A DNA stretch of 64,000 bases from Nitrospirota bacterium (GCA_021840255.1 JAKBYX010000002.1:33325-97324), one strand, 5' to 3'; counted from the stretch's first letter, positions 7,378-50,913 are shown. The notes: generated by a model from the sequence alone, not told the origin. Translations and numbers: made by a program.

Positions 7378-7392
7378 TGGCACGTTCATTGC
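7378..7392 (+). promoter_or_regulatory. sigma54-type -24/-12 promoter element immediately upstream of lpxC
   Basis: TGGCACgttcaTTGCA is an exact match to the TGGCAC-N5-TTGC core with correct GG-N10-GC spacing. It is the only such match I found on either strand. Confidence 0.4.
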
Positions 7393-7406
7393 AAGATAAA
7401 GAAGTG

Positions 7407-8300
7407 ATGAGAAACCAGCGGACATTGGAAACAGAAGTGATGATGGAAGGGGTGGGTTTACACACCGGCGCGCAGTCGGCCATGAGGCTTAAGCCCGCAC
7501 CCAATGACACAGGCATAGTCTTTTTTACCAAGGACGGGGAAGACAAAAAAAGAAAAACCATAAGCGCCACGGTAAACGCGGTCTGCGACACGGCGTTTTC
7601 CACAACCCTGGGGGCAGATGGGACGAGCGTTAAAACGGTAGAGCATCTGCTTGCGGCCCTCTCCGGGCTGGGCATAGACAATCTGCATATAGAGATAGAC
7701 GGCCCCGAGGTGCCTATTCTGGACGGCAGCTCCCAGCGCTTCGTTGATTCCATAATAGGAGCGGGCATTGCCATTCAGCCGTCGAAGAGGCCTTACCTCA
7801 AGATAATAAAACCGTTCATATTCAAGGAAGGCGACGCGGAGGCATCGGCGTTTCCATATGACGGAAGGCGGATCTCTTACCGGATATTCTATCCGCACAG
7901 GCTTCTGGGCCGGCAGGAGATGACCTTCGAGTTCGAAGAAGGCCCCTTTATAAGGGAGATCGCGCCTGCCAGGACCTTTGGCTTTCTGAAAGACGTCCAG
8001 TATCTAAGGACGATCGGCCTTGCGAAGGGCGGCTCGCTTGAGAATGCGGTTATCCTGAATGATACCGATGTCCTGAACTCCTCAGGGCTCAGGTTCAAGG
8101 ATGAGTTTTTGCGTCACAAGCTCCTGGATTTCATCGGGGACATGTCCCTGATGGGTTTCCCGGTACAGGGGCATATGAAGGCCAGCAGGACCGGCCACAC
8201 GAGCAACCTTAAATTCGCCAAGGCATTGCTTGCCGCCACCGATTGCTGGCAGATAGCCTACGACGTGGATCAGGATTTAACCAGCCTCAGATACGCCTGA
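7407..8300 (+). CDS. lpxC: UDP-3-O-acyl-N-acetylglucosamine deacetylase
   Basis: MRNQRTLETEVMMEGVGLHTG aligns with the LpxC N-terminus (MIKQRTLK..GVGLHTG). HKLLDFIGD and the GH..N..F C-terminal motifs are present. The track ORF starts at 7338, but homology begins at the 7407 Met. Confidence 0.9.
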   Translation: MRNQRTLETEVMMEGVGLHTGAQSAMRLKPAPNDTGIVFFTKDGEDKKRKTISATVNAVCDTAFSTTLGADGTSVKTVEHLLAALSGLGIDNLHIEIDGPEVPILDGSSQRFVDSIIGAGIAIQPSKRPYLKIIKPFIFKEGDAEASAFPYDGRRISYRIFYPHRLLGRQEMTFEFEEGPFIREIAPARTFGFLKDVQYLRTIGLAKGGSLENAVILNDTDVLNSSGLRFKDEFLRHKLLDFIGDMSLMGFPVQGHMKASRTGHTSNLKFAKALLAATDCWQIAYDVDQDLTSLRYA

Positions 8301-20337: not shown

Positions 20338-21024
20338 TCAGAATATGAGCTCCGGGTGGGATTTAAGCAAATAAGCGAGGGCGAGCACGGTAAAGGCCAC
20401 CTCCGCGAAACCAAAGAGGGTAAGATGCCCTGCCATGAGGGCAGGGATGGTTACCTTCAGCGGGAAAGGGCTGTATAGCGGCCTGCCATCGGCTCCCTTG
20501 TCCAGGATCGGCTGTATGCCAAGTTCAAGCGCGGTAAGGAAGGCCGCCACGTTTATTCCAAAGTAGGCCCCGCATCCCGCGGCAAACAGTATCCTTTTAT
20601 TTTTGTTTTTCTTTTTCTCGATATTTTCTTTTTTCCCGGCCAAAAGCCTGTATAGGGCCCATCCGGCAAAGACCCCGGCAAAGGCCATGTTGAAGCAGTT
20701 CGCGCCATATGAGGTTATCCCGCCGTCCCCAAAAACAAGGGCCTGCACCGCCAGGGCTATGGACATGCATATGAAGGCCGCCCAGGGGCCCAGCACGACG
20801 GCCAGAAGCATCCCACCGGTGGCGTGTCCGGATGTGCCGCCCATGATGGGGACATTGAACATCATGACCACAAAGCTTGCCGCTGCCCCGAGCGCCAGCA
20901 GGGGCGCGTCGGCCGCCTTGAGAGTTTTTTTTAGCTTCCTGCCTGCCACGTACAATAGCCCCAGTGTTACCGCCCAAAAGCTTCCATACGTCTCCGGCCC
21001 CAGGTATCCGTCAGGGATGTGCAT
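20338..21024 (-). CDS. nikM: ECF substrate-capture component NikM/CbiM
   Basis: The MHIPDGYL N-terminus provides the metal-ligating Met1-His2. It has a 6-7 TM CbiM fold and contains a KKENIEKKKNKNK loop insert. Confidence 0.85.
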   Translation of the reverse strand: MHIPDGYLGPETYGSFWAVTLGLLYVAGRKLKKTLKAADAPLLALGAAASFVVMMFNVPIMGGTSGHATGGMLLAVVLGPWAAFICMSIALAVQALVFGDGGITSYGANCFNMAFAGVFAGWALYRLLAGKKENIEKKKNKNKRILFAAGCGAYFGINVAAFLTALELGIQPILDKGADGRPLYSPFPLKVTIPALMAGHLTLFGFAEVAFTVLALAYLLKSHPELIF

Positions 21025-21081: not shown

Positions 21082-21498
21082 TCATTCCAGGCCCTTCCCG
21101 GTGGTTGTTATCGCCAGCTTGCCGTGCTTAACCCCTCTTGTGCCTATGAGCCTGTCCGAGATCGCCCGGAGGTCTCCGGCGGGTCCTTTAAGGACTATCA
21201 CCTCCAGGCAGTTGTGCGCGTCCAGGTGAACATGCATGCTGGAGAGTATCTCCTTGTGGAACTTGTGCTGCAGATCGGTAAGAGTGTTGGCCAGCTCCCG
21301 CGTATGGTGGTCATAAACGAGCGTCACGCTTGCCACCGCTTCCCGCGTCCCTTCCTCCCACTGCTTTTTAACAAGCTCCTCTCTGATCAGGTCGCGGATG
21401 GCCTCGCTCCGGCTTGGATACCCCTTGCCCTCGATAAGCTCATCGAAGTTCTTTAAAAGACCGTCCTCAAGAGAGATGCCAAACCTGGTTATTCCCAT
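21082..21498 (-). CDS. nikR: nickel-responsive regulator NikR
   Basis: Ribbon-helix-helix N-terminus ([35 protein letters not shown]). C-terminal metal site pattern HH..(x)..[17 protein letters not shown]. Confidence 0.9.
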
Positions 21499-21575: not shown

Positions 21576-21604
21576 TTGACATTCATTACCGCTTCTGATT
21601 AAAT
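21576..21604 (+). promoter_or_regulatory. candidate sigma70 promoter for the riboswitch-cbiMN transcript
   Basis: TTGACA (21576-21581), 17-nt spacer, TTAAAT (21599-21604), just upstream of the riboswitch. Confidence 0.4.
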
Positions 21605-21611
21605 GTACGCA

Positions 21612-21778
21612 GACTTACAGGTGCCCTGACGGGCATAAGAGGGAATCCCGTGGAAATCGGGAGCGGTCCCGCCGCTGTAACCGGGGACGAACCTTCAAGT
21701 TAACCACTGTGCTTTTTAAGGGGCATGGGAAGGTGAAGGTAAGGATGAACCGGGAGCCAGAAGACCTGCCTGGAAGTC
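21612..21778 (+). promoter_or_regulatory. cobalamin (B12) riboswitch
   Basis: Conserved core strings: GGTGCC..., AAGAGGGAATCCCGTGGAAATCGGGAGCGGTCCCGCCGCTGTAA, B12-box-like AACCACTG, GGGAAGG, and GAGCCAGAAGACCTGCC. It sits upstream of cbiM. The boundaries are approximate. Confidence 0.85.
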
Positions 21779-21875
21779 ACAGCCTTGAAGACATGTCTTC
21801 TTGTCTTTATGAGAAGCGCGGGCGTGGAAAACCCGTTTCAAGGATGAATTTTCGGGGATGAAGCAAACTGGGTGC

Positions 21876-22015: not shown

Positions 22016-22726
22016 ATGCACATCGAAGATGGAATCCTGCCGCCAAGGGCGTGGGGATTCTGGTACGGGGTTGCGATGCTTTTCATTATTCCGGGCATAA
22101 GGGAGATTAAAAGGCGGGTGCGGGAGAACCTGTCATACAAACCGTTTCTTGCCATGGTCGGGGTTGGCGTCTTTGTGATCTCGGCCATGCATCTGCCAGT
22201 CCCCGTGACTGGTTCCTGCTCGCATCCTTGCGGCACGCCGTTGGCGGCTATTATTGTTGGCCCTTTCGCCACTGCTGTGATCTCATTAATCGTTCTCTTT
22301 TTCCAGGCCATCTTTCTGGGGCATGGAGGCATTACCACCATAGGGGCCAACGATTTTTCCATGGGCATAGTGGGAGGGATTTCCGGTTACCTCTGCTGGA
22401 GGCTGATGAGGTGTTTCGATTCTCCCTTATGGCTGGCGGGCGGCATCGCCGGTTTTGTGGGTGACGTGATGACGTACCTGACATCCTCTTTCGAGCTGGC
22501 TTTGAGCCTTCACGGACATATTCCATTGCTGAAACAATGGATGATCTTCTTTGCGGGATATGGTCCCACCCAGTTGCCGTTGGCCGTTGCCGAGGCCGTT
22601 TTCACAGCCGCCGTATTGCAAGTAATGTACAATCGGCGGCCGGATTTATTGCCCGGCATCACGGGTAAAAAGTCCGGCAAAATCGGGAAAATACAGATTA
22701 GGGAGCATGAATATGAGAGCAATTGA
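22016..22726 (+). CDS. cbiM: cobalt ECF substrate-capture component CbiM
   Basis: MHIEDGILPP N-terminus, multi-TM CbiM fold, RBS AAAGGAGG 6 nt upstream, and B12 riboswitch control. Confidence 0.85.
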   Translation: MHIEDGILPPRAWGFWYGVAMLFIIPGIREIKRRVRENLSYKPFLAMVGVGVFVISAMHLPVPVTGSCSHPCGTPLAAIIVGPFATAVISLIVLFFQAIFLGHGGITTIGANDFSMGIVGGISGYLCWRLMRCFDSPLWLAGGIAGFVGDVMTYLTSSFELALSLHGHIPLLKQWMIFFAGYGPTQLPLAVAEAVFTAAVLQVMYNRRPDLLPGITGKKSGKIGKIQIREHEYESN

Positions 22727-26929: not shown

Positions 26930-28042
26930 ATGTGCCGTCTTGCCGCTATAACGGCCTCGGAATACTTTTCACCCATGGAGAACATCCATGCGCTGGAGAC
27001 CATGAAGGAAGGCCACGACGGCTCCGGAATGGGCTTGATGCTGAAGCGCCTTGGCGGGTTTGCCGCAAAGCTTAAGGATTACCCTGTGCTCTCCGGCATC
27101 TGCTCCGCTGACGGCTTGATAGAGCTGGACAGGTTCATGAAGGCAAAGGGTTTTAAAGAGGTCCACATGTGGAACCCCAGGGTAAAGCCCGTTCCAGGCA
27201 TCCGGAAAAAAGACTGTTATTTCGCCAAATTCTACGAATACCCGCCCCAACACAAGGAAAGCCCGCTTAAGGAGAAGGAAGAGCTGCTGCTCCGCACAAG
27301 GCTTGCGCTAAGGAAGATGGGGGAAAAGGACGAATCCATAGTGGTGTTTTCCTTCTACCCGGATGTTCTCACGCTCAAGGAGGTGGGCGACCCGCTTGCG
27401 CTTGGGGAGTTCTTCGGGCTTGAGGACGGAGAGCTGAAGGCAAAGATAGTCCTGGCCCAGGGAAGGCAGAACACAAACTATGACATTAACCTGTATGCCT
27501 GCCACCCTTTTTTCATCCAGGGTTTCGGCTCCATGACGAACGGTGAGAACACGGCCTTCGTGCCGATAAGGGAATACCTTATGAGCAGGGGCGTGCCGGG
27601 GTATACGGGCTACCAGAGCGACAGCGAGGTCTTCACGCACATCCTCCACTACACGGTGCGGGAGTTGGGCTTTCCGCTTTCTTATTACAAGGATATAATC
27701 ACCCCGCTTAAACGCGAGGAGATGGAGGCCAGAATGGACAGGGACGCACTCATAATGATGAGGCAGTCCCTGCGGATGCTCGTTATTGACGGGCCCAACT
27801 GCATCATCGGCTTTACGCCCGATGGCAGCTGTTTCATGGTGCAGGACTCAAAGAAGCTCCGTCCAGGGGCGGTAGGAGGCGTAAAGGGCAAGTACGCGTT
27901 CATGTCCGAGGAATGCGGGCTTGACAGGGCGGTCCCCCAGAGGGACAGGTCCCTTGACGTGTTCCCCATGAAATACGACTTTGTAACCGTGCCCAGCGAC
28001 GCGCCGGAGGTAAAGGTTTGGAACCAGTTAAAGGGTCTTTAG
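26930..28042 (+). CDS. glutamate synthase, class-II glutamine amidotransferase subunit (archaeal-type GltB domain 1)
   Basis: The MC- N-terminus gives a catalytic Cys1 after Met removal (MCRLAAI). HDGSGMG and the Ntn-type GATase pattern are present. It is first in a three-gene cluster with the FMN and GXGXG/GltD subunits. Confidence 0.8.
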   Translation: MCRLAAITASEYFSPMENIHALETMKEGHDGSGMGLMLKRLGGFAAKLKDYPVLSGICSADGLIELDRFMKAKGFKEVHMWNPRVKPVPGIRKKDCYFAKFYEYPPQHKESPLKEKEELLLRTRLALRKMGEKDESIVVFSFYPDVLTLKEVGDPLALGEFFGLEDGELKAKIVLAQGRQNTNYDINLYACHPFFIQGFGSMTNGENTAFVPIREYLMSRGVPGYTGYQSDSEVFTHILHYTVRELGFPLSYYKDIITPLKREEMEARMDRDALIMMRQSLRMLVIDGPNCIIGFTPDGSCFMVQDSKKLRPGAVGGVKGKYAFMSEECGLDRAVPQRDRSLDVFPMKYDFVTVPSDAPEVKVWNQLKGL

Positions 28043-29691
28043 ATCTGAAGGATAAAAACCATCAGCTCACGCTGAAGGAATTCCCATACATAATCAGGTG
28101 GCGGGACGACCGCTGCACCCGGTGTGGCAAGTGCACCGCGGTCTGCCCTGTCAAAGCGATAGTGCCCAATGTCCGCGTGGAACGCGTGGTCAGCTCTGAG
28201 GGGCCTTCTCCCATGCCCAAGGTCACCAGGAACGTGGTTTCCATCGTAAGCCAGGTAAACGACATAGACCGCTACTGCACGGGCTGCGCCATGTGCCAGT
28301 TCGTCTGCCCCAATGCGGCCATAGAGCCCGAATTCAACCCGGAACACAAGTTCCTGCAGTTTAAGAACAAGGGCGGAGACCCATATAAGAGAGGCGGCAG
28401 AAGGAACGACCCCGGCCCCTCCACCCTGGACAAGCTTAAATTCACCCGGATATCCATGCTTACCGACCCGGCCCTGGACGCGGGCAGGCATGAGTTCTAC
28501 CTGAAGACATTCCTCGGCCGGATACTGCCCCCCGAAAACCTGCCGTTGAAAGTGGAAAACGGCAAGCTGGTGGTGGACAAGGGCCAGGACGTATTTGTGC
28601 CGCCCGTGAGGGAAGTCTATCCGATAATGATAGGCAGCATGTCCGTGGGTGCCCTTTCTCCTCCCATGTGGGAGGGGCTTGCAATGGGAGTGGCGTATCT
28701 TAACGAGGAGCTGGGGATGCCGGTCGTCATGGCCTCCGGCGAGGGCGGCATGCCGCCAAGGCTCCTGAAATCACGTTTCCTTAAATATTTCATACTCCAG
28801 ATAGCTTCCGGCTATTTCGGATGGGACGAGATAGTCCGTTCGCTGCCGCACATGGTGGAAGACCCGGCGGCGATAGAGATAAAGTACGGGCAGGGCGCAA
28901 AGCCCGGAGACGGAGGGCTTTTGATGTCCTCCAAGGTCCTAAAACTGATATCGAGCATCAGGGGTGTGCCCATGCTCGTGGACCTGGCCTCGCCCCCTAC
29001 ACACCAGACTAAATTCTCCATCGAAGAGGCCGTGGCCAAGATGATACAGTCCATGTCAATGGCCTGGGGGTTCAGGGTGCCGGTCTATCCCAAGATATCG
29101 GGCACCAAAACCGCGAAGGCGGTGCTGAATAACCTGGCCAGAAATCCCTATGCCGCGGCGCTTTCCATAGACGGGGAAGACGGCGGCACCGGCGCGGCCT
29201 ATAACGTCTCGATGGACAAGATGGGCCATCCCATAGCCTCCAACATCAGGGAGTGCTACCTGGACCTCGTAAAGCAGGGCAAGCAGAACGAACTGCCGCT
29301 GATCGCGGCGGGCGGCATCGGCAAGAAAGGCAACCTTGCGGCAAACGCCGCCGCCCTCATCATGCTTGGCGCTTCCATGGTGTCTGTCGGCAAGTACCTG
29401 ATGCAGTCCACGGCAGGTTGCCTGGGCGACGAGAACAACCGCTGCAACCTCTGCAACACGGGCAGATGCCCGAGGGGCATCACCACGCAGGACCCGAAAC
29501 TCTACAGGAGGCTTGATTCCTCCAGGGTGGCCGAGCGGCTTGTGGATGTGTTCCGGGCCGCGGACACGGAGCTTAAGAAGATATTCGCACCCATGGGCAG
29601 GAGCACGGAGCTCCCCATAGGCATGTCCGACGGACTGAGCGTTAATGACAGGGCGATAGCGGAAAGGCTGGGCATCGGCTATGTCTGCTAA
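28018..29691 (+). CDS. glutamate synthase FMN-binding subunit with N-terminal 2x[4Fe-4S] ferredoxin domain (GltB domain 2)
   Basis: CTRCGKCTAVCP and CTGCAMCQFVCP clusters. These are followed by the GltS FMN barrel motifs (IGSMSVGALS, IEIKYGQGAKPGDGG, PLIAAGGIG). TTG start overlaps the upstream gene. Confidence 0.85.
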   Translation: MEPVKGSLDLKDKNHQLTLKEFPYIIRWRDDRCTRCGKCTAVCPVKAIVPNVRVERVVSSEGPSPMPKVTRNVVSIVSQVNDIDRYCTGCAMCQFVCPNAAIEPEFNPEHKFLQFKNKGGDPYKRGGRRNDPGPSTLDKLKFTRISMLTDPALDAGRHEFYLKTFLGRILPPENLPLKVENGKLVVDKGQDVFVPPVREVYPIMIGSMSVGALSPPMWEGLAMGVAYLNEELGMPVVMASGEGGMPPRLLKSRFLKYFILQIASGYFGWDEIVRSLPHMVEDPAAIEIKYGQGAKPGDGGLLMSSKVLKLISSIRGVPMLVDLASPPTHQTKFSIEEAVAKMIQSMSMAWGFRVPVYPKISGTKTAKAVLNNLARNPYAAALSIDGEDGGTGAAYNVSMDKMGHPIASNIRECYLDLVKQGKQNELPLIAAGGIGKKGNLAANAAALIMLGASMVSVGKYLMQSTAGCLGDENNRCNLCNTGRCPRGITTQDPKLYRRLDSSRVAERLVDVFRAADTELKKIFAPMGRSTELPIGMSDGLSVNDRAIAERLGIGYVC

Positions 29692-32080
29692 AAACGGAAT
29701 GAAGAGCGAAAAAAACGGAAAGATGGTTTTTTCTTTTTTTGAGATAAAGGGAAATATCGAAGGGGCAAGGGTAAGCTCCCGCGTCCTGGAAGAACGCATC
29801 CAGGAGGCGGTGAAAGACGGCGCCAGGGAACTGCATGTGACGGCGGACGGCCAGCACGGCATAGGCGGCCGCATATGGCCCAGGGAGGCCCCGGTGCGCA
29901 TCACCGTGGAGGGCCCGGTGGGCCAAAGGCTTGGCAGCATGGGGATGGAAGGCACGCATATCGTCGTAAACGGAGGCGCTTCGGACGATGTGGGCTGGGT
30001 AAACTGCGGAGCAAAGATCACCGTGCTTGGCGACGTCACCAACGGGGCCCATAACGCGGCGGCCGAGGGCATCCTTTATGTGCAGGGCAGCGCAGGCGCC
30101 CGTTCGGATACTCTCACAAAGCATAACCCAAGGTTCGATCCCCCCCAGTCCTGGTATTTCAGGAATGTGGGCGACTCCTTCGCCGAGTTCAAGGCGGGGG
30201 GCATCTCCGTGGTCTGCGGTGTCGACTCCAGAGACCCGGACAACGTCCTTGGATACCGCCCATGCGTGGGAATGGTTGGTGGTGTTATCTACTTCCGGGG
30301 GCCGATAAAGGGTTTTAGCGCGGCTGACGTAAGGCTTTCCGAACTTGGCGACGAGGACTGGACATGGCTTAAGGAAAACATGAAACCGTTCCTTGAGGCC
30401 ATTGAGCGTGAGGACTATTACGGACCGCTTACAAAAGACAAGGACGAGTGGAAAAAACTCATGGCCCGCACCCCCGCGGAAAAGGCGCAGGCCAAGAAGA
30501 AAAAGGCGGGGTTTGGGGAGTTTTCGAAGGATGTATGGGAGAAAGAGGTGGGCGAAGGCGGCATTTTCGCGCCCTACCTGTCGCATGAAAGAGGCCTTCT
30601 GCCTTACATAACAACGGGCGAGGACAGGCGGAACAGGCCCGCATGGGAGAACGAAAAATACAGCCCGCCCTGCGCTTACAGCTGCCCGACCCATATACCT
30701 ACCCATAAAAGGACCGCCCTCATCAGGGCGGGCAAACTGCAGGAGGCGCTCGAATACGTTCTTCAGTACAGCCCCCTGCCGGCCACGGTCTGCGGACAGA
30801 TATGTCCGAACCTGTGCATGCAAAGCTGCACAAGAGGGGTTTCGTTTGACTCCCCGTTGAGCATAGACAGGCTGGGCAGCCTTTCGCTTGAAATAAAGGC
30901 GCCGAAACCGGCCAAAAAGACGGGCCATAAGATAGCGGTAATAGGCGGCGGCCCGGGCGGGCTCTCCGCCGCCTGGCAGCTTGCGCTGAAAGGCCACCAG
31001 TTGGAGCTCTATGAGGCTGAGGGAAAGCTGGGCGGGAAACTTGAGCTCTGCATCCCAAGGGAAAGACTCCCGCAGAAGATCCTTAAAAAGGAACTTTCTA
31101 GGTTCGAGGAGATAGGGGTGAAGGTCCATCTGAAGGCGAAGGTGGACAGGAAGAAGTTTGAAAAGATCGCGAAGGGCCACGACGTGGTTGTGGTGGCATG
31201 CGGCGCCCACAAGCCCAGGGTAATAACCTTCGAGGGCTCCGGTAACACGGTCACCGCCTATGATTTCCTCCGCGGCATCAACCTGGGGGACAAGCCCAAA
31301 CTTAAAGGGAAAAACGTGGCCATAATAGGGGCGGGCAACGTGGGCATGGACGTTGCCGTGCAGGCCATGAACTGCGGGGCTGTTTCCGTGACCGCCGTTG
31401 ACATCCAGAAGCCCGCGGCATTCGGCAAGGAGATGGAGGCCGCCTCTGCCTTGGGCACGAAGTTCCTCTGGCCAAAGTTCACGGAAAGATACGACAAGAA
31501 GACCAGGACGCTCCACTTCAAGGACGGCTCTTCGATCCAGGCAGACCTGCTGGTCGTTGCGGTCGGTGAGACTCCGATGGTGGACTTCCTGCCCGAAAAT
31601 ATAGACAGGGACAGAAACGGCTGGGTAAAAGTGGACGGCAACGGCCAGACGACCGAGCCGGGGGTTTACGCTATAGGCGATGCCACAAGGCCCGGTCTGG
31701 TGACCAACGCGATAGGGCAGGGCAGGGAAACTGCCGAAGTGATTCATGCGGCCCTTATGCATTACGATTACATGCCGGAGGTAAAATCTCCCATCCCCTA
31801 TGAGAGGATAAAAACGGTCTATTACGAGGCCAACCGGGCAAGCGCAAAAGAAAAAGAATCCGCTTACGACGCAAAATGTGACGCCAACCGGTGCCTGTCC
31901 TGCGGGAGCTGCCGGGACTGCCACATGTGCGAGAACGCCTGCTACTGGGGGGCCATATCAAGGGCCGAAAAACCGGGCGGCGGGTTCGAGTACGTTGTGG
32001 ACGATGAAAAGTGCATCGGCTGCGGCTTCTGCGCGGGTATCTGCCCCTGCGGCGTCTGGGAGATGAAAGAGAACATATAA
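29681..32080 (+). CDS. fusion of the glutamate synthase GXGXG domain (GltB domain 3), a GltD-like NAD(P)H oxidoreductase and a C-terminal ferredoxin
   Basis: The N-terminal beta-helix has repeated G.G..G (VVNGGASDDVGWVNCGAKITVLGDVTNGAHNAAAEGILYVQGSAGAR). The GltD Fe-S region reads CP..IP...GRxCP-like as VCGQICPNLCMQSCTR. Also present are IAVIGGGPGGLSAA, VAIIGAGNVGMD and terminal CLSCGSCRDCHMC / CIGCGFCAGICPC. Confidence 0.85.
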   Translation: MSAKNGMKSEKNGKMVFSFFEIKGNIEGARVSSRVLEERIQEAVKDGARELHVTADGQHGIGGRIWPREAPVRITVEGPVGQRLGSMGMEGTHIVVNGGASDDVGWVNCGAKITVLGDVTNGAHNAAAEGILYVQGSAGARSDTLTKHNPRFDPPQSWYFRNVGDSFAEFKAGGISVVCGVDSRDPDNVLGYRPCVGMVGGVIYFRGPIKGFSAADVRLSELGDEDWTWLKENMKPFLEAIEREDYYGPLTKDKDEWKKLMARTPAEKAQAKKKKAGFGEFSKDVWEKEVGEGGIFAPYLSHERGLLPYITTGEDRRNRPAWENEKYSPPCAYSCPTHIPTHKRTALIRAGKLQEALEYVLQYSPLPATVCGQICPNLCMQSCTRGVSFDSPLSIDRLGSLSLEIKAPKPAKKTGHKIAVIGGGPGGLSAAWQLALKGHQLELYEAEGKLGGKLELCIPRERLPQKILKKELSRFEEIGVKVHLKAKVDRKKFEKIAKGHDVVVVACGAHKPRVITFEGSGNTVTAYDFLRGINLGDKPKLKGKNVAIIGAGNVGMDVAVQAMNCGAVSVTAVDIQKPAAFGKEMEAASALGTKFLWPKFTERYDKKTRTLHFKDGSSIQADLLVVAVGETPMVDFLPENIDRDRNGWVKVDGNGQTTEPGVYAIGDATRPGLVTNAIGQGRETAEVIHAALMHYDYMPEVKSPIPYERIKTVYYEANRASAKEKESAYDAKCDANRCLSCGSCRDCHMCENACYWGAISRAEKPGGGFEYVVDDEKCIGCGFCAGICPCGVWEMKENI

Positions 32081-45079: not shown

Positions 45080-45134
45080 CAAAAACCGTTTTCAGACGAT
45101 CCTGAAAAGGACTTCTTGAACGGTTTTTGTTTTC
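45080..45134. terminator. candidate bidirectional terminator overlapping the 3' end of the JAMM gene
   Basis: An 11-bp perfect stem, CAAAAACCGTT (45080-45090) with AACGGTTTTTG (45119-45129). T-rich sequence lies on both flanks. The loop is 28 nt. Confidence 0.45.
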
Positions 45135-45550
45135 TCTCCGCAAACCCTGAAGGCCCGCACATGGTTTTTATCTCCGGGACAAAATCCTATTATTATGTAG
45201 ATGACATCCCAGACCGCCAGGAGGACATCTTTTGGTGAGGGATATGCCTGGCCTACGGGGTGGCTGTGATAGATGGCAAGCATCTTCATTCCTTCTTTTC
45301 TCAGCTCTTTTTCGATCTGGAGCTGTTGGCGGGGGTCCAGCTCATAACTGACCGCGGAGCGGTCTGCGTTTTTCCCCTGGAAGATGCGCTCAACCAGATC
45401 AATGCCTGCGCCCACGGGCCGGGAACCGGTGGGATATCCGGCAAGTATGCCACAGACCTCGTTTTGGGCATCTCCTGCGGCATGGCCTACCATCTGCTCA
45501 TAAATGCCTGAGGGAATTAACAGTTCCTCTTTCAACGGGAAAAAACCCAA
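45092..45550 (-). CDS. JAMM/MPN+ metalloprotease (Mov34 family)
   Basis: The complete JAMM motif is present: E (NEVCGILAG) ... HSHPVGQAYPSPKD (HxH-x7-S-x2-D). TTG start in the track; the exact start is uncertain. Confidence 0.8.
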   Translation of the reverse strand: MGFFPLKEELLIPSGIYEQMVGHAAGDAQNEVCGILAGYPTGSRPVGAGIDLVERIFQGKNADRSAVSYELDPRQQLQIEKELRKEGMKMLAIYHSHPVGQAYPSPKDVLLAVWDVIYIIIGFCPGDKNHVRAFRVCGEKTKTVQEVLFRIV

Positions 45551-45652
45551 AAAACAAAAACCTCTTTTCGTTCTTCAAAAGAGAAAAAGGCCGGAAAAAA
45601 CGGCATGGCATTCATGCCCCATAAGTCCCCTTGGGCCCTGTTCAAGGGGGCC

Positions 45653-46456
45653 TCAGCCCATCTGGCAATATCCGGCGTCGTAGTCCTCGAGTTCCGTGAT
45701 GGTAGGGTTTTCGCCGCATACGGGGCATTTGGGGTTTCTTGGGACCTTGACCTTTCTGAATGAAGCGGAAAGGGCGTTGTAGATCAGCAGGGCGTTTTTA
45801 AGAGGCGCCCCCTGTCCCAAGATTATCTTGAGCGCCTCCGTTGCCTCAAGCGCCCCTATCACCCCCGGCAGTACGCCCAACACTCCAGCCTCCTGGCAGG
45901 AAGGAACCAGCCCTGGAGGAGGAGGAGCCTCAAAAAGGCATCGGTAGCAGTGGCCCTCATGCGGAATCAGGGTTGTCACCTGCCCTTCGAAGCGCAATAT
46001 CGCCCCGCTTACGAGGGGTTTTCTTGAAAGAACGCAGGCGTCATTTACAAGGTACCGGGTGGGGAAATTGTCGCTTCCATCTATGACCAGGTCATATTCT
46101 TCGATAATGCCGGTGATATTGTCTTTGTTAAGGCGGCCCTTCAGTGCCACCACATTCACATCCGGGTTCAGCGCCTCGAACGTGCGCTTCGCGGACTCCA
46201 CCTTGGGCATTCCAATGGTGCTGGTGCTGTGGGCTATCTGCCTTTGGAGGTTGGAAAGCTCCACGACGTCGTCATCCACCAGGCCGATGGTGCCCACTCC
46301 GGCCGCGGCGAGATAGTATCCAACAGGGCAGCCAAGCCCGCCCGCACCCACAAGCAGAACCTTTGCCCCGAGGAGCTTTTTCTGCCCCTTGCCGCCCACT
46401 TCGGGCAATATTATATGGCGGCTGTAACGCTGTATCTGGGAATCGGAAAATTCCAT
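45653..46456 (-). CDS. MoeB/ThiF/HesA-family adenylyltransferase (E1-like)
   Basis: YSRHIILPEVGGKGQKKL, VLLVGAGGLGCP, the RQI motif and Zn-site Cys pairs (CYRC ... CPVCG). Confidence 0.85.
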   Translation of the reverse strand: MEFSDSQIQRYSRHIILPEVGGKGQKKLLGAKVLLVGAGGLGCPVGYYLAAAGVGTIGLVDDDVVELSNLQRQIAHSTSTIGMPKVESAKRTFEALNPDVNVVALKGRLNKDNITGIIEEYDLVIDGSDNFPTRYLVNDACVLSRKPLVSGAILRFEGQVTTLIPHEGHCYRCLFEAPPPPGLVPSCQEAGVLGVLPGVIGALEATEALKIILGQGAPLKNALLIYNALSASFRKVKVPRNPKCPVCGENPTITELEDYDAGYCQMG

Positions 46457-46744
46457 CTAATCCTTCTCCTTGCGTACGACTATGATCCATTCCTTGGGTC
46501 CGGTCTGTTCCACCTTCAGCACCTTCTGCCCATGATCCTGCATGGATTTGGGTATGTTGTGCACGGCCTCAGGGTAATCGAGCACTATCTCCAGCACCTC
46601 TCCCAGTTCCATGTCCTCTATGGCCAGCTTGGCCTTAACAAAGGTATAGGGACATACAAGCCCCCTTATGTCCAGATTCCTTTTCTGTCCAGCGTTTTCC
46701 ATGCGTTCTGCTTCTTCCATGGGATTTGACACCTCTTCCGGCAT
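46457..46744 (-). CDS. TusA/SirA-family sulfurtransferase
   Basis: LDIRGLVCPYTFVKAKLAIEDM matches the TusA active-site Cys context (LD.RGL.CP.P..K.K.A). The stop abuts the E1-like start. Confidence 0.75.
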   Translation of the reverse strand: MPEEVSNPMEEAERMENAGQKRNLDIRGLVCPYTFVKAKLAIEDMELGEVLEIVLDYPEAVHNIPKSMQDHGQKVLKVEQTGPKEWIIVVRKEKD

Positions 46745-46809
46745 ACGGCTTAACCTCCAGGCTTAAAATAAAAACAGACTTTTTCTTTTTTTTTACAGCA
46801 AAAATTTGC

Positions 46810-48168
46810 CTACTCTTCTCCCTCAACCCGGATCAGGCAGGTCTTACCCGTCACAACCGCCCGCAGGCTGTCTATTTTCTTGAGGGCCTTTCTTACGTTC
46901 CTCTCCATTGCCTTATGGGTCAGGATGACAAGGGGCACGGCCCCGCCTTCCTTCCTGCCCTTCTGGATGACCGAGGCTATGCTTATGTTATTTTCCCCGA
47001 GCACACCGGATATCTTTGAGAGTACCATCGGGCGGTCCAGCGCGGAGAAGCGGAAGTAGTACATGCTTTCCACCTCGTCCATACGGCGCAGGCCCATAGG
47101 CGGACCGGATTTTTTCATTTTTATCGCGCCAAGGCCGCTTTTTGGCGGCGCGCCGCTCATTATCCTTTGCGCGATACCGGCGATGTCGCTTACCACGGCG
47201 GAGCCGGTCGGCATGTCCCCAGCCCCTCTGCCGTAATACAGGGTATCGCCTGTCTCCTGCCCGTTCACGTAGATCGCGTTCATCACGCCGTCAACCTTTG
47301 AGATAAGGTAATCTTTGGGAAGCATCGTAGGGTGCACGCGCAGCTCCACCTGTCCGTCCGCCGCCTTGGCTATGGCAAGGAGCTTTATCTTGAAGCCCAG
47401 CTCCGAGGCGAAGGAGATATCAAGCGGGGTGATGCCGGTTATCCCTTCCGTATAGACCGATTCATAGGACAGCGGTATGCCAAATGCCAGGGAGGCCAGG
47501 ATAGCGAGCTTATGGGCTGAATCTGCCCCGCCAACGTCCAAAGTGGGGTCGGCCTCCGCGTAACCCAGCTCCTGGGCTTCCTTAAGCACCTTTGAAAACT
47601 CCACCCCCTCGTTTGTCATCTTTGTGAGGATGTAGTTGGAAGTGCCGTTTACGATGCCGTAAACATAGTTTATTCGGTTAGCTATGAGCCCCTCGCCCAG
47701 GGCCTTTATTATCGGTATCCCGCCGCCCACGCTCGCCTCAAAGCCGACGTTTACGCCGCATTTTTTGGCCGCCCCGAATATCTCCTGCCCATGTTCGGCC
47801 AGAAGGGCCTTGTTCGCCGTAACGATGTGCTTGCCGTTTTTGATCGCCCGCATCATGAGCTGTCTGGCCACACCAAGCCCGCCGATCAGCTCCACGACAA
47901 TGTCTATATCAGGGTTGTCCGTTACCTGACGGGCATCGGTGGTGAGTACGTCTTTCCCAAGGGCTATGCCACGGTCTTTCTTGATGTCCAAGTCCGCGAT
48001 CTTTTTGAGAGTAACGGGGAATCCGAGTCTGGCGCTTAAAAGATCTTTGTTTTCAACAAGTATTCGGGCGGTTCCGCTGCCTACAGTGCCGAAACCCAGG
48101 ATGCCTACGTTTACCGTTTTTTTGATCTGCCCGGTTTTTTTGTTCTTGTTTTCTTTTTCTTTTGCCAT
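46810..48168 (-). CDS. hom: homoserine dehydrogenase (with C-terminal ACT domain)
   Basis: VGILGFGTVGSG, the central catalytic domain (GIVNGTSNYIL, LGYAEADP) and an ACT-like tail. The N-terminus is Lys-rich (MAKEKENKNKK). Confidence 0.9.
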   Translation of the reverse strand: MAKEKENKNKKTGQIKKTVNVGILGFGTVGSGTARILVENKDLLSARLGFPVTLKKIADLDIKKDRGIALGKDVLTTDARQVTDNPDIDIVVELIGGLGVARQLMMRAIKNGKHIVTANKALLAEHGQEIFGAAKKCGVNVGFEASVGGGIPIIKALGEGLIANRINYVYGIVNGTSNYILTKMTNEGVEFSKVLKEAQELGYAEADPTLDVGGADSAHKLAILASLAFGIPLSYESVYTEGITGITPLDISFASELGFKIKLLAIAKAADGQVELRVHPTMLPKDYLISKVDGVMNAIYVNGQETGDTLYYGRGAGDMPTGSAVVSDIAGIAQRIMSGAPPKSGLGAIKMKKSGPPMGLRRMDEVESMYYFRFSALDRPMVLSKISGVLGENNISIASVIQKGRKEGGAVPLVILTHKAMERNVRKALKKIDSLRAVVTGKTCLIRVEGEE

Positions 48169-48312: not shown

Positions 48313-49128
48313 TTGACAAACACAGCGTCCGGTAGCACAATAACCGGAAATTCGGGAGGGGAAAAATTGAAAATCTCCGGTCTTTTTGCCGTGTTTTTTT
48401 TACTGGCAGTTTTTTTTATAAGCGGCTGCGGATGGAAAGTTGATCCCTCCCAGCAGGACGTAAGCAACAATCTGCATATCAACAATAATGACCCTTCCTC
48501 CTCTTCAGTGTCCGTGGCCGGCATATGGCAGGGCACCTATGAAACCGCGAAGGGCCAAATCTATTCCGTCACCGGCATCATAGACTCCTCCGGAGAGGCC
48601 CGGTTTGCCCTTTCAAGCGGCACTAACTTCGTGGGCGGTGTAACCACGTCAAACGCCAGCATCAACGGCCCTTTCAACGTCTATGATCCATCAGGCATGG
48701 TCAATGGCCTCACCTCCCTGAGCGGCAGTTTTTCCAGCGCAGCCATAATAGCCAAATACGCGATGCCCTCCGGCCCCACAGCCTTTTATAACGGCACACT
48801 CAACGTAACACCAAACGCGGTCTATTCAAATCCTGCGGACCTGGCCAGCGTAGGCGGCAAATGGGATAACACCGCCGATGGCCTCTATTTCAGCATCGAT
48901 GGCACTTCCGGCTTGTTCACGGCCAACAATACCCTGAATGGCTGCTTTTATTCGGGGGATATCACTGTGCCGGACTCATCCAAAAATGTCTATGCGCTGA
49001 CGCTTTCGATCAGCGGCTGCGGCAAGGATGGAAGTTACACTGGCCTGGGCTTTATCAACGGGGACAGCTTTACTTATTTAATTTCCAGCCCGCAGCAGGC
49101 ATCTTCCGAAACTCTGGCAAAACAATAA
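48313..49128 (+). CDS. hypothetical lipoprotein
   Basis: Signal peptide with lipobox (..LLAVFFISGC). The mature part shows two similar G.W.GTY/GKWDNT...beta-rich halves. The start may be the in-frame TTG at 48367. No family recognised. Confidence 0.5.
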   Translation: MTNTASGSTITGNSGGEKLKISGLFAVFFLLAVFFISGCGWKVDPSQQDVSNNLHINNNDPSSSSVSVAGIWQGTYETAKGQIYSVTGIIDSSGEARFALSSGTNFVGGVTTSNASINGPFNVYDPSGMVNGLTSLSGSFSSAAIIAKYAMPSGPTAFYNGTLNVTPNAVYSNPADLASVGGKWDNTADGLYFSIDGTSGLFTANNTLNGCFYSGDITVPDSSKNVYALTLSISGCGKDGSYTGLGFINGDSFTYLISSPQQASSETLAKQ

Positions 49129-49159
49129 CCAACCGCAGCCTCTCCTTCCCGTTCCTTTT

Positions 49160-50296
49160 TTGCCTGCAACGGCGGAAGCTGATAGCATTTGGGTGATGAA
49201 CGCCCTTTCCGCCCTGGCCGGTGCGGCCCTTATACTCATTGTTCTTATCGAGGGTTTTGAGACCGTAGTGTTGCCCCACATTGTTTTCCGCCGTGTACGC
49301 CTGACCAGGTTTTTTTACAGGGGCACCTGGAAGGCCTGGTCCTTAATGGTCTGCGGTGCATTTGCTCCGGGAAGGCGCAGAGAAATTTTCCTCAGTCTGT
49401 ACGGGCCGCTCTCACTCATTATTCTCCTTGGCCTGTGGGCCGCTCTTCTGGTTTCGGGTTTTGCGCTCCTCTACTATTCCATAGCCGGAGTTTTTGGGGG
49501 CGCTAAAACGGGTAATGCCGGTTTCTCCGGATGCCTGTATTACAGCGGCACTACCTTCTTCACCCTGGGGCTGGGGGACGTCCTTCCCATGGCTCCCTGG
49601 GCAAAGGCGCTCACTGTGCTTGAGGCCGGTACGGGGTTTGGGTTCCTTGCGATCTTCATAAATTATCTGCCGCCCCTGAATCAGTTTTTTTACAACAGGG
49701 AGACCCCTGTTTCAGCGCTGAGCGCCCGGGTGGGCGCGCCGGTCTCGGCCTTTGCGATACTGGACAGGCACATCGCCGGACAAAACCTGGATGTCCTCCA
49801 TCAATTGCTCTATGACTGGGAAAGATGGGCCTCGGAACTTCATGAAAGTCACCTTGCCTATCCGGTCCTGGCCTATTTCCGTTCAGAGCATGAAGACCAG
49901 TCCTGGCTTATGGCGCTTACCGCCGTCATGGATACCTGCGCCTTCATCATGTCCGGCATGGAGGGGGCGTGCAAATGCCAGGCGGAGCTGACCTTCTCCA
50001 TGTCCATGCATACGCTCACGGACCTGTCCTCGGTCTTTCATTGCCCCCCGGTACGTCCTGATAGCCCCTCTGTACCTGATAGCCCGCCGGTACATGAAAG
50101 ATTATCTCCCGGTGAACTGGACCACATTCGTTTGAAGATGCTGGAGAAAGGTTTTTCGGGGCTGCCGGATGCCGGTGACATGCACAAAAAACTGGCGCAA
50201 TTGCGCCTGCGGTATGAGCCATATGTCCAAGCCCTTGCAAGCCGCTTCCATATGGCCGTTCCTCCCTGGGTCCGTAAAGCGCAGGCGGAAAAATAA
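49160..50296 (+). CDS. two-TM pore-loop ion channel family protein (K+-channel-like)
   Basis: The pore-loop segment YYSGTTFFTLGLGDVLP (filter-like TLGLGD against TVGYGD) lies between TM helices. It has a large soluble C-terminal domain. The start is uncertain (TTG 49160 or Met 49196). Confidence 0.65.
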   Translation: MPATAEADSIWVMNALSALAGAALILIVLIEGFETVVLPHIVFRRVRLTRFFYRGTWKAWSLMVCGAFAPGRRREIFLSLYGPLSLIILLGLWAALLVSGFALLYYSIAGVFGGAKTGNAGFSGCLYYSGTTFFTLGLGDVLPMAPWAKALTVLEAGTGFGFLAIFINYLPPLNQFFYNRETPVSALSARVGAPVSAFAILDRHIAGQNLDVLHQLLYDWERWASELHESHLAYPVLAYFRSEHEDQSWLMALTAVMDTCAFIMSGMEGACKCQAELTFSMSMHTLTDLSSVFHCPPVRPDSPSVPDSPPVHERLSPGELDHIRLKMLEKGFSGLPDAGDMHKKLAQLRLRYEPYVQALASRFHMAVPPWVRKAQAEK

Positions 50297-50352
50297 AAAA
50301 TAAAAGGAAAACAAAAAACAAAAATTTTCCATTTTTGAAATACTAAAGCGGT

Positions 50353-50913
50353 ATGGGAATTTTTATCCGGCATTTATCGATAAAGAAGCGGACATTTACC
50401 AACAACCTGGTCCGCTTGAACTCCCTCGCTTTTGCCAGATGGAAGTTCCTGCCCGGAATGTCTTTTAAAGCGGAGGAAAAGTGGTGGGCCGGAGGCAACC
50501 GGGGCAGGGGCCATAACGGGCTGGATCTGAGGTTTTACGAGACGGCAGACGGGGAGGTAAAAACGCTTTCCGAAGATACAGAGATACCCCTGATCCACAT
50601 GGGTAAAATAATAAAAATAATTCCTGACTTCATTGGGCACAGCCTCTTTGCAGAGCACGTAAAAAACCCTGGCGGCGGGAAACGGCTTTTCATCATTTAC
50701 GGCCATATGACTCCCGAAGCGGGGATAGAGAACAGGCAACTGGAGAGCGGCTGCGTTATAGGAAGGCTTGCTCCTTCCAAAGGTGTCGTCCCCACGCACC
50801 TGCACATCTCCATCGCCCTTGTGCCCGAAGATATCCCCCTTGAAGCCCTCGACTGGGAAACCCTTGACGCCGCGCAAGGCGTGTTGTTTTCAGACCCGGA
50901 AGAGGTTATATAA
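50353..50913 (+). CDS. M23/LytM-like peptidase-fold protein without signal peptide
   Basis: HxxxD (GHNGLD) and HxH (THLHIS) motifs with an intervening IYGHM...G..IG pattern. No N-terminal export signal is visible. Confidence 0.55.
   Translation: MGIFIRHLSIKKRTFTNNLVRLNSLAFARWKFLPGMSFKAEEKWWAGGNRGRGHNGLDLRFYETADGEVKTLSEDTEIPLIHMGKIIKIIPDFIGHSLFAEHVKNPGGGKRLFIIYGHMTPEAGIENRQLESGCVIGRLAPSKGVVPTHLHISIALVPEDIPLEALDWETLDAAQGVLFSDPEEVI

Follow-up and report, generated by a model that had tools for sequence, protein, structure and literature searches.

In Wolinella succinogenes, the HcyS/HcyF/HcyD/MetY system, which we take to be a 'type 4e' neighbourhood, yields homocysteine, and its JAB peptidase trims the carrier. 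As defined by Iyer, Burroughs and Aravind in 2006 (PMC1779556), 'type 4e' denotes a sulfur-assimilation neighbourhood that combines ThiS/MoaD, JAB, E1 and SirA genes. According to the same survey (Iyer et al. 2006, PMC1779556), the E1 proteins without a rhodanese domain in ThiS/MoaD-JAB sulfur-assimilation neighbourhoods are always accompanied by SirA (TusA), the derivatives consisting of JAB and E1 only form type 4b and bear a rhodanese fusion, and the operons for thiamine and the molybdenum cofactor (Moco) never contain a JAB gene. For Streptomyces albulus, a homocysteine route that starts from O-phosphohomoserine and employs MetO, Mec, MoeZ and MetM has been described (Hasebe et al. 2024, as relayed in the GapMind 2026 preprint, 10.1101/2024.10.14.618325).

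Here we analyze a block of four genes in a 64-kb stretch of DNA (64,000 nucleotides, hereafter the window) from a Thermodesulfovibrionales (Nitrospirota) bacterium, where ORF calls place homoserine dehydrogenase (hom), a TusA-like protein, an E1 adenylyltransferase and a JAMM peptidase head to tail on the minus strand. We consider it likely, with a probability of about 0.72, that the block represents one half of the known O-phosphohomoserine/thiocarboxylate pathway to homocysteine, of the MetM/MetO/MoeZ/Mec kind, namely the half that supplies the precursor and activates the carrier, with the carrier encoded elsewhere.

Organization of the locus and identity of the four proteins

The first gene of the block, hom (positions 46810-48168, minus strand), encodes a 452-aa homoserine dehydrogenase with a C-terminal ACT domain, recognized by the Pfam model Homoserine_dh (7.5e-63) together with NAD_binding_3 and ACT, and by NCBIfam PRK06349 with 539 bits against a cutoff of 205. 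It is followed by an A/T-rich spacer of 65 nt (46745-46809) that carries a GGAGG ribosome-binding site 12 nt 5' of the tusA ATG; a terminator scan found no terminator-like match in this spacer, and hom is presumably co-transcribed with tusA. The 95-aa TusA-like sulfurtransferase (46457-46744, minus strand) matches PF01206 (2.3e-22), has TM0983 (1JDQ) as its top PDB match (2.8e-16) and contains the active-site motif GLVCPYT. Its TAG stop codon is directly followed by the ATG of the 267-aa E1 (45653-46456, minus strand), an adenylyltransferase of the MoeZ/MoeB type without a rhodanese domain. A spacer of 102 nt (45551-45652), with a terminator-like hairpin at 45618-45602 and an AAGAGG site upstream of a TTG start, leads to the 152-aa JAMM/MPN+ (M67) zinc peptidase (45092-45550, minus strand); this spacer is not conserved, E1 and JAMM abutting or overlapping in several relatives. 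The original prediction had described four consecutive minus-strand genes, the abutting TusA stop and E1 start, the 102 nt between E1 and JAMM and a complete JAMM motif, and it proved accurate in all of these details.

The CPYT cysteine of the TusA-like protein is invariant, both in 34/34 orthologues and in every tusA of the MetM-linked contigs described below. One related locus (L019) has a separate, canonical CPMP TusA adjoining NifS/NifU, and two others (L025, L036) show TusA-like matches in the corresponding NifS/NifU region. We propose that the CPYT protein is a dedicated paralogue that acts as the persulfide donor to the E1. In the JAMM protein (Pfam Prok-JAB, 6.9e-19), the metal site consists of EVCG and HSHPVGQAYPSPKD, the latter corresponding to H-x-H-x7-S-x2-D, and the ExCG and HxHx7SxxD motifs are intact in 32/32 orthologues. 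The top PDB match is 2KKS (7.5e-16), followed by PfJAMM1, and the NCBIfam desampylase model gives 75 bits, under its cutoff of 130. Identity to the JAMM of a Nitrospira MetM-MetO cluster is only 25%, and the nearest relatives outside the order (47%) adjoin argC and a deacetylase-like gene. The proposed role of the peptidase is to trim the residues past the Gly-Gly of the carrier, and it possibly also releases carrier-amino-acid adducts.

The E1 matches PF00899 (ThiF, 2.1e-86, 289 bits) and contains no rhodanese domain. It passes the cutoff of the MoeB subfamily model PRK05690 (317 bits against 266) and falls under the equivalog cutoffs of MoeB PRK08762 (400 bits; cutoff 449), UbaA (353 bits; cutoff 450) and MoeZ (325 bits, along the E1 portion of the model), as well as scoring 242 against the cutoff of 377 of the MoeB model TIGR02355. 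The motifs GAGGLG, SCQEAGV and CYRC...CxxC are invariant in 34/34 orthologues. The C-terminal tail, NPTITEL-DY--GYC, matches the linker that in two other loci (L049, L064) runs on into a rhodanese domain, and it is thus a MoeZ linker truncated before that domain. In neighbour-joining trees, built without support values, the E1 lies in a clade whose members are found in clusters containing CysK/CysM, MetM and carrier genes. The original prediction had named a grouping with bona fide MoeB as evidence that would speak against it; the E1 stands apart from E. coli MoeB (45% identity), which, like ThiF (41%), is placed far outside its clade in the neighbour-joining tree.

The carrier and its partner enzymes are not encoded at the locus

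The window contains no plausible ORF with a terminal GG, and at E<=0.1 none of the 72 small ORFs outside the large genes gives a match to Pfam ThiS or to any of the Ubl families. Custom HMMs for ThiS and for MetO/CysO/MoaD retrieved nothing at E<=10, whether in the window, in the 10 kb that flank it on both sides, or up to 10 kb from the E1 of 33 relatives. Genes for a PLP sulfhydrylase, a ThrC-like or MetM-like protein or a NIL protein are likewise absent from the window, its 10-kb flanks and the 10 kb on either side of the E1 of the 33 relatives, and neither sulfate-assimilation genes nor an O-acetylhomoserine sulfhydrylase occur in the window or the related loci. The ORF scan, Pfam and custom HMMs thus agree with the original prediction that a ThiS/MoaD/CysO-like ORF ending in GG is missing here, and the sulfhydrylase gene that it had failed to see is found neither in the window nor in the 10 kb beyond each end. 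The carrier gene has probably moved elsewhere in this genome, which presumably encodes both a carrier and a MetM.

Conservation across the Thermodesulfovibrionales

Among 33 species-level genomes of the order, the TusA-E1 pair is present in 33/33, with the TusA stop and the E1 start between -1 and +2 nt apart in 30/33. The JAMM gene directly follows the E1 in 31/33, and two genomes have no adjacent JAMM; the 31 linked genomes run counter to the unlinking of JAMM and E1 in relatives that the original prediction had offered as a ground for abandoning it. The gene order recurs across the order, so we dismiss a chance juxtaposition of the four genes, and since the flanks differ from genome to genome, the block itself is the conserved unit. 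The suggested linkage to hom is frequent and falls short of universal, as hom immediately precedes TusA-E1 in 14 of the 31 informative genomes and is missing in the other 17.

The decisive evidence comes from contigs of the same order in which the block runs straight into MetM-like, MetO-like and NIL genes. A metagenome scan yielded 13 contigs with TusA(CPYT)-E1, with or without hom before it and JAMM after it, followed immediately by genes for a MetM-like and a MetO-like protein; hom is upstream in 11/13. The added genes, all on the same strand, encode in order a threonine-synthase paralogue (MetM-like), a 92-aa carrier of the ThiS family (MetO-like) and a NIL-domain protein, the last being present after the MetO-like gene on most of the 13 that are long enough to show it. 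The E1 proteins of these contigs are 68-80% identical to that of the window, and the best matches of their TusA (76-83%), hom (64-75%) and upstream aminotransferase (76-79%) are from Thermodesulfovibrionales; by these sequence matches the contigs appear to come from the same order. In one of them (L127), hom-TusA-E1-JAMM is joined to a ThrC paralogue, a ThiS-family carrier (11246-11524; ThiS 8.9e-18), NIL, ThrC, HomK (TIGR02535, 572 bits against a cutoff of 446) and aspartate kinase (635 bits), so that the MetM-like gene of the relatives occurs beside a second, canonical ThrC. In the neighbour-joining E1 tree, the L127 protein is the sister, or nearest outgroup, of the clade of the window, and the other MetM-linked contigs branch basally within the TusA-coupled clade. 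Both sets of loci are biased by the manner in which they were retrieved.

The MetM-like proteins score as threonine synthase, NCBIfam having no MetM model, and their putative assignment as MetM-like draws on context and literature. The MetO-like carriers match the SAMP1 and MoaD_arch models below the equivalog cutoff (60). In this clade they mostly end in AIAGG followed by 1-10 residues, and this extension past the GG would therefore make them substrates for the JAMM peptidase. At least eight further contigs, with a MetM belonging to the same clade (identity of 75% or more), carry MetM-MetO-NIL with no E1 in at least 2.5 kb upstream; one such cluster is found in cultured Thermodesulfovibrio species and another in Thermodesulfovibrionales MAGs. 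Because MetM-MetO-NIL is thus found as a separate locus without E1, the split arrangement exists in the order.

A proposed split pathway for homocysteine synthesis

Since relatives either join the same block to MetM-MetO-NIL or keep the latter separate, we read the block as the half of the pathway that activates and matures the carrier. The biochemical steps and the direction of sulfur flow that we infer would be as follows. Hom would produce homoserine, and a kinase encoded elsewhere (HomK or ThrB) would convert it to O-phosphohomoserine. A MetO-like carrier of the ThiS/MoaD fold, its gene also lying elsewhere, would be made with a few residues past Gly-Gly, which JAMM would remove, and the E1 would adenylate the exposed C-terminal glycine. 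The translationally coupled TusA-like protein would then supply persulfide sulfur to give carrier-COSH, standing in for the fused rhodanese of the MoeZ type, and a MetM-like threonine-synthase paralogue would make homocysteine out of O-phosphohomoserine and carrier-COSH. An adduct of carrier and homocysteine may be a second substrate that JAMM hydrolyses. The E1 may, in addition to this role, act on further carriers, for example MoaD, ThiS or a CysO-like protein. The original prediction had proposed that homocysteine is made with the help of a carrier encoded at another site and of TusA as donor, a scheme that the linked and split loci of relatives support, the carrier of this particular genome being one that we infer. 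The partner enzyme that the relatives indicate is of the MetM type, which uses O-phosphohomoserine, in place of the MetY or CysM for which that prediction had suggested a search.

Other functions for the block are conceivable. The E1 could be a housekeeping MoeB that mainly thiocarboxylates MoaD for the molybdenum/tungsten cofactor (and perhaps also ThiS or a tRNA-thiolation carrier), with a TusA relay as in E. coli, hom being adjacent by historical accident and JAMM being a minor accessory. It is publicly named MoeB, has E. coli MoeB as its top PDB match (220 bits) and passes the PRK05690 cutoff; E. coli TusA affects Moco synthesis, MoeZ of M. tuberculosis works on CysO as well as on MoaD, making dual use plausible, and hom is missing in the 17 genomes noted above. 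We nevertheless regard this reading as unlikely: no moa, moe or thi gene adjoins the block in the window or in any of the 33 genomes, the neighbour-joining trees place the E1 inside the clade of cysteine and homocysteine thiocarboxylate clusters and far from E. coli MoeB, the sister lineage joins the block to MetM-MetO-NIL-ThrC-HomK-LysC, and JAMM is kept in nearly all genomes, in contrast to the lack of JAB in thiamine and Moco operons (Iyer et al. 2006, PMC1779556). Thiocarboxylate-dependent cysteine synthesis of the CysO/CysM type, in which a ThiS- or CysO-like carrier activated by the triad would serve a CysK/CysM-like enzyme from another locus, is suggested by the nearest E1 outgroups, which adjoin CysK/CysM-like PLP enzymes and ThiS-family genes: CysK-like, E1 and a ThiS ending in GG+AEKR in L046; ThiS, PALP and ThiF in the Nitrospira loci L048 and L093; an E1 adjoining a CysK-like gene in L050 and L053; and CysM and JAB in L049. 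The partners of the TusA-coupled clade itself are MetM-like and MetO-like genes with hom, thrC, homK and lysC, not a cysteine synthase, and the ThiS-like query from L046 matched only L046-like and Nitrospira proteins, making a cysteine pathway in place of the homocysteine pathway very unlikely, even if a cysteine role could coexist with it.

Conjugation to proteins, raised as an alternative in the original prediction, found no support. If the system resembled sampylation or TtuB, a Ubl activated by the E1 would be attached to target proteins and JAMM would be the deconjugase, and the best named NCBIfam relatives do include UbaA (353 bits) and desampylase (75 bits), with SAMP1 and MoaD_arch matching the MetO-like carriers; all of these scores are under the equivalog cutoffs (450, 130, 60), no E2- or E3-like gene is present and every relative has a biosynthetic context, so that we hold it to be highly improbable, although the sequences leave room for some conjugation on the side. 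An anti-phage E1/JAB module resembling CBASS Cap2/Cap3 or Bil, or an E1 acting on a non-Ubl substrate in the manner of MccB/PaaA, is effectively refuted by the genomic context: in PADLOC, the E1-E2 models reach at most 74 bits, on the Rossmann part of the E1, and the JAB models give weak matches to JAMM of at most 20 bits, far under ThiF (289 bits) and the MoeB type (400 bits), no E2 domain, cyclase, effector or other partner gene occurs in the window, and the block is kept in a housekeeping context across the order, not in a variable island. A broader and quite unlikely scenario is that, in lineages where the block is separated from metM-metO, the TusA(CPYT)-E1-JAMM triad is a general hub that activates unlinked β-grasp carriers (MetO-like, ThiS-like for cysteine, MoaD), with JAMM processing or deconjugating them, as the bacterial equivalent of the UbaA/SAMP/JAMM network of archaea, possibly extending to protein modification, the stand-alone NIL protein being a component of homocysteine synthesis. 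If this were true, the NIL-domain protein would be a previously unrecognised part of thiocarboxylate-dependent homocysteine synthesis.

Comparison with known systems

The split homocysteine pathway that we favour has its closest counterpart in the MetM/MetO/MoeZ/Mec system of S. albulus, as far as the account available in the preprint goes. On the basis of that account, the shared elements are an E1 of the MoeZ lineage and a Mec-type JAMM peptidase needed to mature the carrier, both found here, the latter with an intact metal site, and, in close relatives, a carrier of the ThiS/MoaD fold adjoining a threonine-synthase paralogue plus hom, and HomK for O-phosphohomoserine; the MetO carrier and MetM are present in relatives and in neither the window nor the searched flanks. 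The MetM-like and MetO-like proteins are likened to S. albulus MetM and MetO by context and by the description given there. Differences from the system as described there are the lack of a rhodanese domain in the E1 and its coupling to a dedicated CPYT TusA, the stand-alone NIL gene that accompanies the carrier on most sufficiently long contigs of relatives, the unlinking of carrier and synthase genes from the activation genes in this genome, and the host, an anaerobic member of the Nitrospirota and not an actinomycete.

With the Wolinella HcyS/HcyF/HcyD system and type 4e, the block shares the rhodanese-less E1 together with SirA/TusA and JAB that characterizes that type; it differs in that sulfate-assimilation genes are absent, the carrier is missing from the locus and relatives have, as the partner, a ThrC paralogue for O-phosphohomoserine instead of an O-acetylhomoserine sulfhydrylase. 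The M. tuberculosis CysO/CysM/MoeZ/Mec system likewise combines E1, JAMM, a β-grasp carrier and a PLP enzyme acting on an O-phospho-amino acid, and E1 outgroups adjoin CysM/CysK-like genes; here homocysteine is the most likely product, TusA would take the place of a fused rhodanese in trans and the locus has no cysM. The E. coli MoeB-MoaD (with its IscS-TusA relay) and ThiF-ThiS systems have in common with the block the E1 fold, zinc site, P-loop and catalytic cysteine and, presumably, the feeding of sulfur by TusA, and differ by the low identity and tree position noted above, the JAMM gene here and the absence of a moa or thi context. The archaeal UbaA/SAMP/HvJAMM1 system also has a rhodanese-less E1 and a small JAMM, and the relatives have carriers similar to SAMP1 and archaeal MoaD, but the scores stay below the equivalog cutoffs and the context is bacterial and biosynthetic. 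The block is thus best read as a variant of an already known system, with TusA in place of the rhodanese domain.

Results

The block consists of four consecutive minus-strand genes, found at exactly the positions of the original prediction and with identities supported by Pfam and NCBIfam: a homoserine dehydrogenase (hom, 46810-48168, 452 aa), a TusA-family protein (46457-46744, 95 aa), a ThiF/MoeB-type adenylyltransferase (E1, 45653-46456, 267 aa) and a JAMM peptidase (45092-45550, 152 aa). Finer details of the prediction hold as well, in that the E1 start codon directly abuts the TusA stop codon, 102 nt separate E1 from JAMM, and the JAMM metal motif is complete (ExCG and HSHPx7SxxD). The TusA cysteine is part of an unusual motif, CPYT. 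The E1-JAMM spacer is not conserved, the two genes abutting or overlapping in several relatives; in the window, a terminator-like hairpin (45602-45618, minus strand; GGCATGAATGCCATGCC and then a run of T) lies within it, past the end of E1 and ahead of JAMM, and could partly uncouple JAMM expression or could be nothing.

The window E1 lacks a rhodanese domain according to Pfam and NCBIfam. It scores 400 bits against the NCBIfam model PRK08762 (MoeB), 353 bits against UbaA and 325 bits against MoeZ, each below the respective equivalog cutoff, and, at 317 bits, clears the 266-bit cutoff of PRK05690, a model of the MoeB subfamily. Its C-terminal tail, CPxCG-NPTITEL-DY--GYC, is common to relatives in which the tail runs on into a rhodanese domain (related loci L049 and L064), which identifies the window enzyme as an E1 of the MoeZ type terminating at the linker. 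The portion NPTITEL-DY--G(Y/F)C is conserved in the window (45653-45724, minus strand) and in loci L013-L053, and includes an invariant cysteine approximately 20 residues past the second zinc CxxC. This residue could, by its position and conservation, relay persulfide between TusA and the adenylate, a role of which we know of no prior description. In neighbour-joining trees, computed without support values, E. coli MoeB and ThiF (used as outgroups only) fall far outside the TusA-coupled clade, with 45% and 41% identity to the window E1, a distant placement with which a PDB search agrees. The nearest outgroups of this clade all reside in thiocarboxylate-type clusters: CysK-like, E1, ThiS ending in GG+AEKR, NifS, NifU and MnmA in locus L046; ThiS, PALP, ThiF, ThrC-like, ThiS family, NIL, ThiF and JAB in Nitrospira, an order confirmed in a complete genome by precomputed Pfam labels; and CysM, JAB, ThrC-like, ThiS family ending in GG+N, NIL and E1-rhodanese in Thermodesulfobacteria.

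The window comes from a MAG of the Nitrospirota order Thermodesulfovibrionales. Conservation was assessed in 33 species-representative genomes of this order, a set biased by its retrieval with peptide patterns from the window E1. The TusA-E1 pair is present in all 33, with a distance of -1 to +2 nt between TusA stop and E1 start in 30 of them, and JAMM directly follows E1 in 31. Linkage to hom is not universal in the order, the gene directly preceding TusA in 14 of the 31 informative genomes, distributed over both major E1 clades. The flanks of the block vary, with an aminotransferase and LipA possible upstream of hom and HtpX, an RRM protein or others downstream, and the catalytic motifs of TusA, E1 and JAMM are all invariant among the aligned relatives. 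JAMM diverges much faster than E1 (34-40% versus 73-79% identity between the two clades). The window JAMM is only 25% identical to that of the Nitrospira MetO cluster, so that orthology is unsupported and the E1-JAMM synteny with Nitrospira is not used as an argument. Beyond the clade of the window JAMM, its closest counterparts (47% identity; locus L008, 8001-8402, and locus L011, 8001-8408) have no E1 nearby and sit in the order rplM, rpsI, argC-like, JAMM, histone-deacetylase-like. In locus L001, whose E1 protein is identical to that of the window and of locus L002, the block is kept and the region immediately upstream of hom differs: at 5630-8194 (window counterpart approximately 48313-50913) a protein with HTH_23/28/29/32 matches, likely a transposase, and other genes replace the window's neighbours, so that the block here borders on a rearrangement breakpoint.

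The absence of a carrier or sulfhydrylase gene in or beside the cluster, noted originally, was borne out by every search of the 64-kb window, 10 kb past each of its ends, and 10 kb either side of E1 in the 33 related genomes. No ThiS/MoaD-type gene was found there among ORFs ending in GG, among 72 small ORFs outside large genes scanned with Pfam, or with custom ThiS and MetO/CysO/MoaD HMMs at E<=10. Likewise, phmmer queries with MetM, NIL, ThrC, HomK and LysC returned nothing, no PLP sulfhydrylase was found across these regions, and the E1-JAMM and hom-TusA spacers of the relatives contain no unannotated ORF. TusA itself is ruled out as the E1 substrate, as its C-terminus, (I/V)(R/K)K(E/D/A)(K/R)(D/E), lacks Gly-Gly. 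At E<=1, Rfam detected no riboswitch for methionine or SAM close to the block. Only one riboswitch is present in the entire window, of the cobalamin class (RF00174, 120.8 bits; 21602-21787, plus strand). It precedes a gene for CbiM-like cobalt transport (22016-22726), and two genes run divergently on the minus strand, one for a NikR-like regulator (21082-21498) and the other a further CbiM-like gene (20338-21024). Elsewhere in the window, three consecutive plus-strand genes (26930-32080) resemble a split glutamate synthase of the archaeal type; contig L133, which is of Thermodesulfovibrio type, carries counterparts of the first and second with 68% and 78% identity.

The missing partners appear in relatives. 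Scanning metagenome contigs with an alignment of ThrC-like (MetM-like) proteins yielded 80 loci, a set biased by its retrieval with MetM patterns, of which 35 make up a clade whose MetM shares at least 75% identity with that of contig L127. In 13 contigs of this clade (hom)-TusA(CPYT)-E1-(JAMM) lies immediately upstream of MetM-MetO, in 8 there is no E1 in at least 2.5 kb upstream, and in 14 the upstream sequence is too short to tell. The linked contigs encode E1s 68-80% identical to that of the window, and their best matches are Thermodesulfovibrionales genomes for TusA (76-83%), hom (64-75%) and the upstream aminotransferase (76-79%). By exact look-up in public records, linked E1s are labelled Thermodesulfovibrionales, Dissulfurispiraceae and Nitrospirae MAGs, one stand-alone MetM cluster cultured Thermodesulfovibrio species and another Thermodesulfovibrionales MAGs; the same look-up of E1s, aimed at same-genome co-occurrence in cultured Thermodesulfovibrio, returned clusters without cultured strains. 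The L046 ThiS-like carrier as a query matched only L046-like and Nitrospira proteins, and a database query with the Nitrospira MetM-like protein was swamped by Nitrospira sequences and is uninformative for Thermodesulfovibrionales.

The fullest arrangement is an aspartate-family and thiocarboxylate super-operon of ten genes on one strand of L127, a 120-kb contig (7009-15368): hom, TusA, E1, JAMM, a ThrC paralogue with a zinc ribbon, a 92-aa ThiS-family carrier ending in AIAGG+VF, a NIL-domain protein, canonical ThrC, HomK (TIGR02535, 572 bits) and aspartate kinase (lysC), two ThrC paralogues thus lying near each other. In the neighbour-joining E1 tree the clade of the window has L127 as its sister, with the remaining linked contigs basal. 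This is most simply explained by an ancestral linked operon whose physical continuity beyond JAMM was lost in the window lineage. Most MetO-like carriers of the MetM clade have 1-10 residues after Gly-Gly. Such extensions, seen in L046 (10828-11040), L049 (9431-9709) and the MetO-like genes of L106-L153, vary in length and sequence (GG+AEKR, GG+N, GG+VF, GG+SF, GG+IMRRGFYEKTR), and Nitrospira carriers stop exactly at GG. In Thermodesulfovibrionales, Nitrospira and Thermodesulfobacteria alike, the gene after the MetO-like carrier nearly always encodes a stand-alone NIL protein of approximately 80 aa (L127 11561-11797; L133 11540-11788; L049 9734-9973; L093 8523-8762; L046 6980-7249). NIL domains are also part of MetN and, in methanogens, of the NIL-ferredoxin protein from the homocysteine pathway, and the stand-alone protein may be an unrecognised pathway component or a methionine sensor. 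NCBIfam scores the MetM-like proteins as threonine synthase; their assignment draws on gene context and on the statement, in the GapMind 2026 preprint (bioRxiv 10.1101/2024.10.14.618325), that MetM is often annotated in this way.

Some genomes encode an additional, canonical TusA next to NifS/NifU, with a CPMP motif read in locus L019, which indicates that the CPYT TusA is a dedicated paralogue. In L019 (1308-4076), and in the same region of L025 and L036, NifS, NifU and this second TusA-family gene (a weaker match in L025 and L036) lie 3-6 kb upstream of TusA(CPYT)-E1-JAMM, NifS/NifU being transcribed divergently from the second TusA-family gene and, in L019 and L025, from a GYD-domain gene; the region could be an upstream sulfur source for the triad. 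In other taxa (L098-L105, L111-L113, L126) the order is CysK-like, TusA, MetM, MetO, E1, NIL, with a TusA of another subfamily, approximately 45% identical where compared (L100). TusA therefore repeatedly accompanies MetM/MetO clusters, not only in Thermodesulfovibrionales.

Discussion

From the gene content, motifs and linkage observed, together with published work and what is established about E1/β-grasp sulfur carriers, we infer each chemical step of the following sequence. Hom, with a homoserine kinase or phosphotransferase, would provide O-phosphohomoserine; JAMM would trim the 1-10 residues after the carrier Gly-Gly; E1 would adenylate the carrier; the coupled TusA would deliver persulfide sulfur, replacing the lost rhodanese domain; and a MetM-like enzyme would produce homocysteine. 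The central proposal of the original prediction, carrier-dependent homocysteine synthesis, is upheld, since in relatives hom-TusA-E1-JAMM runs into MetM-MetO and split loci exist in the order.

Other roles have to be weighed against this one. A pure MoeB function of the E1, the role its public name implies, is less well supported, E. coli MoeB lying far outside the clade, and MoaD or ThiS may be additional partners of the enzyme. The use of the same enzymes for cysteine synthesis, or for Ubl conjugation, is also less well supported than homocysteine synthesis. A phage-defence reading of the E1 and JAMM was rejected.

The homocysteine reading places the recently described O-phosphohomoserine/thiocarboxylate route in Thermodesulfovibrionales, an order of anaerobic Nitrospirota that reduce sulfate or disproportionate sulfur, and the route also appears in Nitrospira and Thermodesulfobacteria. 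In public records JAMM is named an M67 metallopeptidase, E1 molybdopterin-synthase adenylyltransferase MoeB and the MetM-like protein, in cultured Thermodesulfovibrio too, threonine synthase; metabolic reconstructions of these MAGs are therefore likely either to overlook the pathway or to show a spurious gap in methionine synthesis. The block is a clear-cut natural case in which a TusA paralogue stands in for the rhodanese domain of MoeZ-type E1s, and the split of a biosynthetic operon is a way for a "carrier-less" E1-JAMM cluster to arise.

We found no paper dealing directly with a TusA-ThiF-JAMM triad in Nitrospirota. We take the Wolinella HcyS/HcyF/HcyD system to belong to the type 4e neighbourhoods. 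The working proposed here would be that of these neighbourhoods, which are SirA-containing with a rhodanese-less E1 (Iyer et al. 2006, PMC1779556), and of the MetM/MetO/MoeZ/Mec pathway (Hasebe 2024) as outlined in the GapMind preprint. None of these results overturns current understanding, and the cluster is a variant of a known system rather than one new in kind. It differs from the known systems in the coupling of a rhodanese-less E1 to TusA and in its split genomic arrangement and, as seen in the relatives, in a ThrC-paralogue partner instead of MetY and a NIL protein alongside the carrier.
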